Below are positions 20,404 to 23,970 of a stretch of 64,000 nucleotides of DNA, in pieces. Each line of letters starts with the position of its first letter. Position 1 is the first letter of the stretch. The position numbers were made by a program, and so were the translations under genes. Under the pieces are notes generated by a model. The model was not told where the DNA came from. It made no database searches and was given only the letters and a program-made list of their open reading frames with translations. The DNA is from a virus: positions 9,742 through 73,741 of IMG/VR virus record IMGVR_UViG_3300040801_000524. One strand, written 5' to 3'.

Positions 20404-23400
20404 ATGCCCGCTGGTCTGAATCTCATATTTCCTTTTGATACCGGTGCCAATCAGGACCCGGCCAACACCTATCCGTTTTCTACGGGTGGTGGCCCGGGTA
20501 TTCCTGATCCGGAACCCCTTGGCACGCTTGATGCATACCACGGGATCATTGGGGACTACAAGTTTTACACCTACACGGACAGGGTGTTTGCGCTGTGTGA
20601 GTACAGCACTTCCCAACTTCAGTACAACATCATCGAATTCAATTGGCTTTGCCCGGATGGCATCTTCTGGGAAGGGGCTTCTGTTGACTTTGATTTGACC
20701 GTTTCCGAACACACCAATGTCAACCTGAACCTGTGTGATTCGCCAGACTATCACCTAACCATTTTTGAGTTTGAGCAAGCATGTGGTCTTGTCAATCTGG
20801 CCGTTGAATCCAGACTTGACTTTGATCTGTGGACATCCGGTCGTCAAACAGGAATCAGAATCGATCTTCCTGTTTGCTGTGAGTATGAAGTTCCTGATCC
20901 ACATCAAATGGACTTCTTCTTGGGTGCGACTGAAGTTCGATACAACATCGAAACCGAGGGCAACACCCCCTACGATTTCGTCTTCGAAACATCATCTCCG
21001 CTGATTCAGGAAACAAACTATCAACTTGATGTTGGTGGCACCCCGAATGCTGATTACTTCAGCCTTTGTGACACCTATGTCATTGCGGCTTCCGTGTGTG
21101 CCGTTGCTGACCTGACAACAGAACCGAGAGACCTTCTTTCAAACGATTTCTGGCTGTGCCCGACCAGTCCGCAAGTTACCCCACGATTCGAGGGTCTACA
21201 AACCCCGATTGAGCCGGACACTGGTGACACCAATCTACCACAATTCTCATTCAGTTCCCACTATTGGCTGTATGAGTTCACCCCGAAGGCATGTAACCCG
21301 GGCATCTGGCCGATTGCACACCACGACAGTCAGATTGACGTTGAACTGGATGTTGACAAGCGCACCAATTGGGATTTCCCGATCTGTTCCGAAGACCTGA
21401 ACCCGGCCCCGGATTACAGCGAGAACCCGAACCACGTCTTCGAGTTCAAACCCGATTACATCTATGAGTGTGGTGCGTTCGAATTCGTCTTCTACCACGG
21501 TTCGAACTGCTACATCAACATCCTTGAATCTATCGAAATCGAAGGGGTGTTTGCCTTCCATGGGGCATACGCTGACGCTTCTCTGTCTCCGTTCCAGAAC
21601 TTCTCCGCTGACGCACGTCACGGTGGGTACGGAAACCTTGATTTGACCATTTTCCCATCCATTGAACTGGATGTTGACTGTTATTATGGTCATTTTGCGG
21701 ATGCTACCTTGTTCACAGTCGTTGTCTTCTATGACATCGATGGATACCATGGTGGAACCGGTGCGGCTGATCTGGCAACCTTCGGTCCCCCGACATTCGA
21801 GCCGAATGCCTACCACGGTGGCAATGGTGAGTTCGAGATGCTTACCGAGCCGAACATTCAGGACGTGGAAGGGTACCACGGTTCCTACGGTGACCTTGAC
21901 TTCACCAGCTTCCCGGCTGCCTTGCTTGAGCCGAATGCGTACCACGGTGGCAACGGTGTTGTCGATACCATCATCCTGACGCCTCAGTTTGAGCCTGTGG
22001 CGTACCACGGGGCATATGGTGATACCGACTTCACTGATGTTCCATCGGCCGGTATAGGGGATGTGAGAGTCTACCACGGTGGTTACGGTGATGTGACCAT
22101 GGCCGTTACCTTGGGTCTGCGTGACATCGAGGGATACCACGGTGCGTATGCGGAAGGAACGCAACTTTCCTTCTCAACCACCTTCTCCGTGGATTACTAC
22201 CAAGGTGCCTACGCTGATACCGACTTCACCGAGACCCCACCCCCGACATTCGAACCAAATGTGTACCACGGTGGACACGCTGTTCTTGATGACATGGCTG
22301 TCACCAAGGCACTGTTCCCACGTGCGTATGCGGGTGCGTATGCGGATGCGGGCCTACAGGACTTCCCGGCACAAGAACTTCAGATTCCGAACTACCACGG
22401 TGGCTATGCGGTTGTTGATGCGTTGACCGAAGATGAATTCAACTTCTTCAACTACCACGGTGCGTTTGCCGAAGCCGAAATGGCTATTCAGGTGAACTTG
22501 GGAGAAACCAACTGCTACCACGGTGCTACTTCCAACCTGAACGATCTGAACTACGAATTCGTGGCACTGGACATTGATTCGTACCACGGTATCCGTTCGA
22601 TTGTGACCGCTGTTGGTTTTGAAGTTCCCCCGGGTCCGACCATCTTGGCCAATGCGTATGGTGGTGAGGTATTCGAGGCAACAACCGACATCCGTGAACA
22701 TGCGAAGCTGAAGGTTCGTTTCGTACACGATCTGGCCATGTATGATGGATTTGGTGGAATCGGTGGTCTGAACCACTGTTACACAACAGACCTGACCTAC
22801 TCAAGTCACTATCATCCGAACGATCTTGATGGTCCAGATCACGTGATCCGTTTCGAATACCCGATCAATGGGGACCTGAACCAGTACGATTCTGACCTGA
22901 ACTTCGTCTTTGATGAATTCGGGGATCGTCCATGGAACGTCTGCAACAGTCACCACAACAATGGACATATGGCCATTGACCTGTTGACCAACCCACGTTT
23001 TGAAGCCGAAGCGTACCACGGTCACGGTACCGAAGTGTTCATGAAGAAGGAACTGACCGCATTTGGTGAAGTTCCGTTGGACATCCTGTACTCAGAAAAC
23101 GGTGAAGGTGGTCGCAGAGACCACATTGACACCGGTTTCACCCGTGACTTCTTCGAGCTTGACATCTACGATGGTGCGGCCGGTGCTGTGTGGTGGGAAG
23201 ATGATCCGGATTCCATACGTGCGTGGGGTGGATACTCTTGCCAAGTTGAATTCACTCTGGTACCGCTGGCCTACGAAATCGTCCACGACACCAACCTTGT
23301 GGTTGACCTTGGTGTTCCGAAACCGTCTTGGAAGGAGTTCATTCGTGAGTTCATGGACGGGGCTGGAATCATCATGGACTTCGAACCGGAAATCTGGTTC

Positions 23401-23970
23401 CGATTCTGCCCGGGTTACATCGTCCCGGTTGGTAACCAAGTCATTTTGGAATTCGCTTCGTCTGATAACACAGACTGTGTGGCATGGTACGCCAACGGTG
23501 GTGAACGTGCTGAAGCCGATCTTTCATGTGAGTACGGTCTGTCCGTCAACTACTATCACGGGTCTTATGCACAAGCAACCGTAACAGTTCAAGCCCTGTG
23601 GACCCTGTTCGCCCGTCATGGTGCACATATGGCCATGGCTTCAAACGTGGACTTCTCCGCAATCTTCCGTCATGGTACTCACATCATCGGTGAGTTCTAC
23701 GAACCCCCGGTTTATGGTTATGGTGGTGAGGTCATGGAACTGGCTGAACTTGTTGTGACCGGTGCGGCTGTCGAGTGGGTCACCCCAGAAGGATGTCTAC
23801 CGAACGAATACGTTCCGCTGACAGATGGTGGTGACCCCGATCTGGCTGCATTGCTGCCGGACGAATTTGGTGTGATCTACTACGTATCTGTACCGGTGGA
23901 AGGTCTTCCATACTTCACACCGCTGAATGCACAGTGTATCACATTTGCTGAATCCGAGGGTGGATCATAA
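20404..23970 (+). CDS. Large acidic repeat protein with ~21-23 aa (Y/F/R)HG repeats and Cys-containing N-terminus
   Basis: 1188 aa; recurring AYHGG/YHGAY motif; no family recognised. Confidence 0.8.
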   Translation: MPAGLNLIFPFDTGANQDPANTYPFSTGGGPGIPDPEPLGTLDAYHGIIGDYKFYTYTDRVFALCEYSTSQLQYNIIEFNWLCPDGIFWEGASVDFDLTVSEHTNVNLNLCDSPDYHLTIFEFEQACGLVNLAVESRLDFDLWTSGRQTGIRIDLPVCCEYEVPDPHQMDFFLGATEVRYNIETEGNTPYDFVFETSSPLIQETNYQLDVGGTPNADYFSLCDTYVIAASVCAVADLTTEPRDLLSNDFWLCPTSPQVTPRFEGLQTPIEPDTGDTNLPQFSFSSHYWLYEFTPKACNPGIWPIAHHDSQIDVELDVDKRTNWDFPICSEDLNPAPDYSENPNHVFEFKPDYIYECGAFEFVFYHGSNCYINILESIEIEGVFAFHGAYADASLSPFQNFSADARHGGYGNLDLTIFPSIELDVDCYYGHFADATLFTVVVFYDIDGYHGGTGAADLATFGPPTFEPNAYHGGNGEFEMLTEPNIQDVEGYHGSYGDLDFTSFPAALLEPNAYHGGNGVVDTIILTPQFEPVAYHGAYGDTDFTDVPSAGIGDVRVYHGGYGDVTMAVTLGLRDIEGYHGAYAEGTQLSFSTTFSVDYYQGAYADTDFTETPPPTFEPNVYHGGHAVLDDMAVTKALFPRAYAGAYADAGLQDFPAQELQIPNYHGGYAVVDALTEDEFNFFNYHGAFAEAEMAIQVNLGETNCYHGATSNLNDLNYEFVALDIDSYHGIRSIVTAVGFEVPPGPTILANAYGGEVFEATTDIREHAKLKVRFVHDLAMYDGFGGIGGLNHCYTTDLTYSSHYHPNDLDGPDHVIRFEYPINGDLNQYDSDLNFVFDEFGDRPWNVCNSHHNNGHMAIDLLTNPRFEAEAYHGHGTEVFMKKELTAFGEVPLDILYSENGEGGRRDHIDTGFTRDFFELDIYDGAAGAVWWEDDPDSIRAWGGYSCQVEFTLVPLAYEIVHDTNLVVDLGVPKPSWKEFIREFMDGAGIIMDFEPEIWFRFCPGYIVPVGNQVILEFASSDNTDCVAWYANGGERAEADLSCEYGLSVNYYHGSYAQATVTVQALWTLFARHGAHMAMASNVDFSAIFRHGTHIIGEFYEPPVYGYGGEVMELAELVVTGAAVEWVTPEGCLPNEYVPLTDGGDPDLAALLPDEFGVIYYVSVPVEGLPYFTPLNAQCITFAESEGGS

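Follow-up and report, generated by a model that had tools for sequence, protein, structure and literature searches.

A long acidic Tyr-x-Gly repeat protein in the structural module of a T4-like myovirus: a possible rope of a chain-like fibre

Introduction

What is the role of a phage protein that repeats the same short aromatic motif some 20 times? The question is raised by a gene in the viral record IMGVR_UViG_3300040801_000524, of which we analysed a stretch of 64,000 nucleotides (nt; positions 9,742 to 73,741 of the record). This whole stretch is called the window below, and all coordinates are counted from its first letter. The record is a 73.7-kb IMG/VR viral fragment, approximately 41% complete, that holds the structural module of a T4-like myovirus. 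The gene (P0001, 20404..23970, + strand) encodes an acidic protein of 1188 amino acids (aa), the repeat protein, in which an aromatic residue, usually Tyr, is followed by a variable residue and a Gly at short regular intervals. The original prediction, made from the letters of the window, had offered two ideas for it, namely a trimeric beta-spiral or beta-helix shaft with a ladder of metal-binding His residues, or a scaffold with one docking site per repeat. We find that the His ladder fails, and tentatively suggest that the protein is the rope of a chain-like fibre.

Results and discussion

The repeat array

The tripeptide YHG occurs 16 times in the repeat protein, as compared with 0.25 expected occurrences and a maximum of 3 in 2000 shuffles. 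The strict motif [YFR]HG is found 20 times and the looser motif aromatic-x-Gly 27 times, so that the regular repeats claimed previously are real and the number given for them, about 30, was a slight overcount. Nineteen consecutive copies with a spacing of 20-25 aa make up a core array (residues 364-752, nt 21493-22665), in the same place where the repeats had been described as densest (approximately 21490-22670). Four further copies form a second cluster at residues 1051-1106, in agreement with the recurrence noted near the C-terminus. The 19 core copies have the consensus [F/L][E/D][V/P/I][D/N][A/G]-Y-H-G-[A/G]-Y-[A/G]-D-x-D-L-T-x-F-P, where the Gly is found in 19/19 copies, the Tyr in 17/19 and the His in 15/19. 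The protein contains 182 Asp and Glu residues against 38 Lys and Arg, which bears out the earlier remark that it is acidic and that basic residues are scarce; there are 43 His residues.

The autocorrelation of the protein sequence has its peak at lag 43, not at 21 or 22. This indicates that there are two alternating types of half-repeats, which together form a super-repeat of 43 aa. At the DNA level the copies, centred around TAC-CAC-GGT, are only 60-80% identical, and Tandem Repeats Finder detected no tandem array in the DNA of the gene. The repeats therefore appear to be old and to be maintained by selection at the level of the protein. Within the repeats there is also an antisense open reading frame (ORF) of 305 aa (21247-22164, - strand), which most probably is no gene but a side effect of the repetitive codon composition.

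AlphaFold2 did not give a confident model, neither for the full-length protein (62 sequences; predicted local distance difference test, pLDDT, 39.5) nor for a crop of residues 400-760 (25 sequences; pLDDT 38.4). In the full-length model only residues 1120-1180 reach a pLDDT of 66-82. We used the secondary structure alone from both of these low-confidence models. In both runs, a half-repeat has one strand up to the Tyr, then a turn of three residues (x-Gly-x), another strand and a loop containing Pro; that is, each half-repeat is predicted to be one beta-hairpin. Of the beta-spiral or beta-helix shaft proposed earlier, the beta-rich character is thus found again in these two runs at the level of secondary structure, whereas the His ladder is not sustained (see below).

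A possible rope for Gp80-like beads

Cryo-electron microscopy has revealed chain-like fibres in which Gp80-like dimers dock in tandem on an extended rope by beta-sheet augmentation (PMC13730344). In A1002, 11 dimers are bound to the fiber-dock segments of gp39 (residues 243-468, 3-32 and 96-107), which amounts to ~268 aa for 11 dimers or ~24 aa per dimer, with an Ig-like domain placed between segments of the rope (PMC13730344). In the myophages Bas63 and Sf14 there are two dimers per collar rope, and the rope passes through a groove in each monomer, completing an incomplete sandwich (PMC12609058). The chain-like fibre of GP4 has five dimers, and its rope is encoded separately.

By analogy with these fibres, we tentatively propose that the repeat protein serves a T4-like myovirus as the scaffold of a virion appendage, namely as a rope with ~20 docking sites for beads. 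The repeat array would be the rope of a chain-like (beads-on-a-string) fibre, and each half-repeat would donate two strands to the two monomers of one Gp80/Fiber-1-like dimer, completing their unfinished beta-sandwiches as in GP4, A1002 and Bas63. With ~20 dimers the fibre would be roughly 50 nm long. The Cys-containing C-terminal domain, perhaps together with the translationally coupled partner encoded downstream, would anchor the fibre to the particle, and the LamG proteins of the same module would provide glycan binding.

The best evidence for a rope is the gene context, and here first of all a bead gene in the same phage. Two genes upstream of the repeat gene, and in the same operon, there is a gene for a Gp80/Fiber-1-like protein of 143 aa (18092..18523, + strand), the putative bead, which matches the Pfam family PF23140 ("Podophage GP4 fiber I protein gp80") with an E of 1.5e-28 and 100 bits, the cutoff being 27. 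A match to the T4-type late promoter consensus TATAAATA is located 43 nt upstream of the bead gene (18042..18049, + strand) and is followed by a strong AGGAG ribosome-binding site. A promoter and a strong ribosome-binding site of its own would fit a subunit that is needed in a high copy number. Bead and repeat genes co-occur in 8 of the 10 records that contain the repeat family, and in the remaining two the contig breaks off 0.5-1.5 kb upstream of the repeat gene.

The second observation is the unit itself. As far as period and predicted secondary structure can tell, the array consists of tandem two-strand units close to the size of those in known ropes: the 19 (+4) units measure 21-22 aa and have two predicted strands each, compared with ~24 aa per dimer in A1002. 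Within the module, the repeat protein is the only one with short tandem repeats, the neighbours of 190, 605 and 1260 aa being globular LamG arrays. That the lone chain does not fold in AlphaFold2 is what would be expected if its order were gained by strand donation. Furthermore, a LamG domain interrupts the array of some relatives, which parallels the Ig-like insertion in the A1002 rope, and the number of repeats varies among relatives as the number of units does among known ropes. As in GP4, the rope would be encoded separately from the bead. Given the bead gene and a period near ~24, one docking site per repeat is the better of the two ideas of the original prediction; docking itself is suggested by the analogy with the solved fibres.

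There are also differences from the known ropes. These have 2, 5 or 11 units, as compared with ~19-23 here, and the repeat protein is far larger, with additional N- and C-terminal domains. Known ropes are found at podophage nozzles or myophage collars, whereas the repeat protein is encoded in a T4-type baseplate gene module. Finally, the repeat protein is marked by a strongly conserved Tyr-x-Gly signature.

Several points weigh against a rope. Searches of the PDB with the single sequence and with a profile gave no matches, and no sequence similarity to any solved chain could be detected. A comparison of the repeats with GP4 gp79 was not significant (BLASTP E 0.12, hhalign 0.1%). In Lietuvens, an unrelated bead-bearing myophage, the large protein encoded next to the bead (ORF28) has no such repeats. 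Since the genomes in which the bead and repeat genes co-occur are related, their co-occurrence is no independent evidence. A regular hairpin with an invariant Gly could equally form a self-standing beta structure, and a shallow alignment (25-62 sequences) may be all that lies behind the low confidence of AlphaFold2. As only 41% of the genome is sequenced here, another candidate for a rope could lie elsewhere. A literature search returned no proteomic or structural paper on the orthologues from Menderavirus or Busanvirus, and no virion proteomics of the protein.

The GP4 protein used in this comparison deserves a separate remark. Gp79 of Ralstonia phage GP4 (L024, 8548-9525) is a Gly/Ala-rich, virion-associated protein of 325 aa, the gene of which is adjacent to gp80. 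Its sequence contains Tyr-x-Gly-[G/A/S] motifs approximately 21-22 aa apart, together with SG-x-G-x-I-[DE]-L repeats. We regard this protein as a candidate for the rope of GP4; its own sequence is absent from the PDB. The proteins phiM5_18 and CRP-4 gp54, encoded beside bead genes in other unrelated phages, show loose periodicities only.

Self-standing beta structures

A somewhat unlikely alternative is a self-standing beta-fibre without beads. The protein would form a homo-oligomeric, probably trimeric shaft, in which the hairpins of three chains intertwine to give a rigid side fibre; the C-terminal domain would be the trimerisation or anchor module and the variable N-terminus the distal end. 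The prediction of an all-beta protein, in which every repeat is a hairpin that turns at an invariant Gly, agrees with such a shaft, and so do the position of the gene in a tail/baseplate module and the variable number of repeats among relatives. The failure of AlphaFold2 on the monomer is often seen for intertwined trimers as well. On the other hand, there is no similarity to solved fibres, including T4 gp12, gp34 and gp37, and both the dedicated bead gene at the head of the operon and the match with the period of the ropes are left unexplained. The period is also a difficulty. The triple beta-spirals of adenovirus fibre and reovirus sigma1 likewise consist of short tandem repeats with two strands each and a conserved Gly at a tight turn; their period is ~15-16 aa, whereas the repeat protein has one of 21-22 aa and a super-repeat of 43 aa. 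There is no sequence match either, and membership in the triple beta-spirals is unsupported.

Three further families were tried and rejected. The T4 baseplate wedge and fibre proteins gp7, gp10 and gp34 gave hhalign probabilities of at most 0.6% with the repeat protein. An Rhs/YD-repeat shell found no Pfam match at E<=0.1, no NCBIfam match at E<=1 and no core of the PxxxxDPxGL type. For an RTX beta-roll there was no Pfam match (HemolysinCabind), and the segment G-[AG]-Y-[GA]-D-x-D of the repeat is out of register with GGxGxDxUx.

We consider it improbable that the protein is a monomeric beta-solenoid, or a single-layer beta-sheet "wall" of the outer baseplate carrying lectin modules, which would take over the function of the peripheral T4 proteins gp9-gp12. 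No homologues of gp9-gp12 were recognised in the window, and the LamG insertion in the arrays of relatives would suit such a wall. Beta-solenoids also dominate the Foldseek list; this list is weak, with a best E of 0.44 and all matches at E of at least 0.44, and because it was obtained with a model of pLDDT 39 we regarded it as not meaningful and disregarded it. Moreover, AlphaFold2 is usually good on monomeric solenoids and failed here twice, and an alternating super-repeat of 43 aa would be unusual for a solenoid.

Histidine conservation and the metal question

We counted the His, Gly and aromatic residues of the repeat by hand in an alignment of 8 close homologues (19 columns, 151 cells). 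The Gly is present in 150/151 cells and an aromatic residue at the Tyr position in 115/151, whereas the x position is His in only 94/151 (~62%) and is invariant in one of the 19 columns. In distant relatives that align in register there is no YHG; His makes up 0.4-1.4%, and YSGE, YTGE or YDGS is found instead. The orthologues from cultured phages, ACP17 gp072 and Ps15 gp031, have Y-T-G-E or H-T-G-E. A ladder of His residues had been made dependent on their conservation across homologues, and with a His that is frequent in close and absent from distant homologues this reading fails. We infer from the alignments that the His of YHG is a lineage-specific residue of the hairpin turn and no conserved metal ligand.

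The T4 proteins gp12 and gp37, which had served as models for the ladder and have His-metal sites on the trimer axis, are phage tail appendage proteins and rich in beta structure, like the repeat protein. They share no sequence or profile similarity with it (hhalign probability 0.2% for gp12 and 0.1% for gp37), and in the repeat protein there is no HxH motif and the His is not conserved. A His-metal fibre of the gp12/gp37 type was therefore rejected, as homology is absent and the ligand is not kept.

Most lineages do retain one residue of the ligand type in the turn, which is a His at +1 in the repeat protein, an Asp at +1 in YDGS members and a Glu at +3 in YSGE and YTGE members. Potentially, the turn could be a ligand position with a lineage-specific chemistry, with Zn, Ni or Fe bound in the lineages that have His and Ca or Mg in those with an acidic residue, and where ~20 cation sites would stiffen the rope or gate the binding of beads. 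We think that this is quite improbable, because many turns have no such residue. If it were true, the metal idea would be rescued in a modified form, and fibre assembly or adsorption would depend on ions.

A metal-loaded shaft in the stricter sense, with a ladder of ion sites made up of the His residues of the repeats, is very unlikely. The presence of His at the same turn position in most core repeats, the potential ligand usually kept by relatives (Glu at +3 or Asp at +1) and the very acidic composition speak for it; the conservation data given above speak against it, as do the many turns with Ser, Gly or Ala that have no compensating acid, the lack of HxH and of gp12 or gp37 similarity, and the distance of ~10 A that successive hairpin tips of one chain would have. 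If a metal site is present at all, the set of four conserved Cys residues in the C-terminal region may be a better candidate than the repeat His, judging by sequence conservation.

Finally, it is hardly probable at all that the protein is a spike-associated cargo or an ejected protein, comparable to the effector genes between vgrG and PAAR in type VI secretion loci: the module does lie between the gp5-like hub gene and PAAR, but the neighbours have domains as they are usually found in external adhesins (LamG, Ig-like and bead), an enzymatic or toxin domain is absent, and in Ps15 the module is not next to PAAR.

Regions of the repeat protein

The repeat protein can be divided into four regions. 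Residues 1-358 (20404..21477, + strand) form a variable, Cys-rich N-terminal region, where the F/W-x-(L/I)-C motif reported earlier was found in four exact F-x-[LI]-C copies (FALC, FSLC, FWLC and FPIC) and some near-copies; C252, C328 and C356 are invariant among close homologues. The region of the core array (residues 359-768, 21478..22707, + strand) contains the 19 half-repeats of 21-22 aa in their 43-aa super-repeats, and its Gly columns are invariant across 25 sequences. It is followed by a non-repeat middle region (residues 769-984, 22708..23355, + strand) which has the conserved motif YDGxGGxGGLNHC and, at residues 871 and 941, single copies of aromatic-x-Gly.

The C-terminal region (residues 985-1180, 23356..23943, + strand), the proposed anchor domain, is the part most widely common to the family. 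It has four near-invariant Cys residues (C1002, C1025, C1131 and C1178) and the motifs RFC[PK]GY, GCLxNEY and VPVE. These C-terminal 200 aa with their four conserved Cys are the conserved core of the family, while the N-terminus and the number of repeats vary.

Homologues and distribution

The repeat protein has no match in Pfam, PHROGs or NCBIfam, and the same is true for its relatives; these curated libraries lack the family that the original prediction could not recognise. The ESM Atlas returned no usable match and no stored model for the protein. We found ~15 full-length metagenomic homologues among 5.8 billion clusters and 89 representatives of the family among 1.84 billion proteins, most of which have only the C-terminal 200 aa in common. 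A scan of 185,579 cellular genomes with one conserved pattern found no relative. The repeat family had not been described before, and the sequence type of its repeat is likewise new. Phage tail appendages made of tandem beta repeats, on the other hand, are a known kind of object.

In cultured phages the family is found in 21 records, always annotated as "hypothetical protein". These phages are Stenotrophomonas phages of the genus Menderavirus, Acidovorax phage ACP17, Xanthomonas phages X1/BUDD and one Variovorax phage. ACP17 gp072 (Busanvirus) and vB_SmaM_Ps15 gp031 (Menderavirus) are true homologues, as their C-terminal Cys domain is found by tblastn with an E between 2e-12 and 1e-58. Like the repeat protein, they have a repeat of ~21 aa, a phrog_29085 partner encoded downstream, and a LamG protein and a bead gene upstream. 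They differ in being shorter (750 and 606 aa), with fewer repeats and unlike N-termini, and in their repeat, which is Y/H-T-G-E instead of Y-H-G-[A/G]. In the relatives P0047, P0035 and P0024 a Laminin_G_3 domain is inserted inside the aromatic-x-Gly array, whereas the LamG proteins of the window are encoded by separate genes.

Implications

Chain-like fibres have been recognised only in 2023-2026, with 2 to 11 bead dimers and at podophage nozzles or myophage collars only. If the repeat protein is a rope, then it would be by far the longest one known, with roughly double the sites of any example known so far, and the first one tied to a T4-type baseplate gene module. The aromatic-x-Gly motif every 21-22 aa would then be a sequence signature with which ropes can be searched for. 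Rope or not, the repeat protein defines an uncurated family of ~90 clusters. Among its members are "hypothetical proteins" from phages of Stenotrophomonas, Acidovorax and Xanthomonas under consideration for therapy and biocontrol, and in those phages the module is likely to be a determinant of host adsorption. Members of the Gp80/Fiber-1 bead family occur in 576 phage records, approximately 490 of which are mycobacteriophages (siphophages). Chain-like fibres may therefore be far more common than the solved cases.

Gene neighbourhood

The repeat gene is a late structural-module gene, the position of which is kept between a LamG lectin gene and phrog_29085, just upstream of PAAR, gp25 and gp6. 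The structural module contains the gp48-, gp27- and gp5-like hub genes, a run of LamG/ConA-like genes, the Gp80-like gene and the repeat gene. It continues with phrog_29085, PAAR, gp25, gp6, wedge genes, the gene of a VriC-like giant protein and fibres, with terminase and sheath further on. The part with the LamG, bead and repeat genes (~14 kb, 11315-25298) is flanked by the gp5-like hub gene on one side and the PAAR gene on the other; the corresponding place in T4 holds just the small genes 5.1, segC and 5.3.

The order in the operon is bead, LamG protein, repeat gene, phrog_29085, PAAR, gp25 and gp6. From phrog_31125, the LamG protein, to gp6 this order recurs in L003, L004 and ACP17; the trio of phrog_31125, repeat gene and phrog_29085 is also found in Ps15. 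The protein encoded directly upstream of the repeat gene, a position that is conserved, is a globular ConA/LamG-type protein of 605 aa (phrog_31125, 18540..20357, + strand). The repeat gene has a Shine-Dalgarno sequence AAGGAAG (20390..20396, + strand) 8 nt upstream of its start, and its stop overlaps the next start in TAATG.

This next gene encodes the partner protein of 442 aa (phrog_29085, 23970..25298, + strand). It contains the additional YHGAY that had been noticed before, as MYHGAY at residues 132-137; this is its one conserved aromatic-x-Gly copy, the Gly of which is invariant in the orthologues. It also has two invariant CxxC pairs, C326/C329 and C349/C352, which by their sequence resemble a Cys4 site of the zinc-ribbon type. 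More CxC and CxxC motifs are found in its acidic, Pro/Glu-rich tail, and there is a weak match to the Ig-like domain He_PIG.

The consensus TATAAATA has 3 matches in the 64-kb window as compared with 0.24 expected, and 3 matches were reached in 0/100 shuffles. Going by its sequence, the site at 18042 marks where the transcription unit with the repeat gene begins. The second site (40184-40191) precedes a gene for a 349-aa protein (40268-41317) with PHROG matches of the head-decoration and collar-fibre types, and the third (61941-61948) precedes an ORF of 247 aa (61984-62727).

A domain of ~75 aa occurs in four neighbouring proteins (11861-12088, 14294-14515, 17223-17456 and 20112-20318). Its signature, G-x-V...D-x-x-T-G...S-D-x-x-G-x-Y...VHGP, resembles that of carboxypeptidase-regulatory or transthyretin-like beta-sandwiches, and the alignment, though weak, is genuine, one pair giving a BLASTP E of 3e-4.

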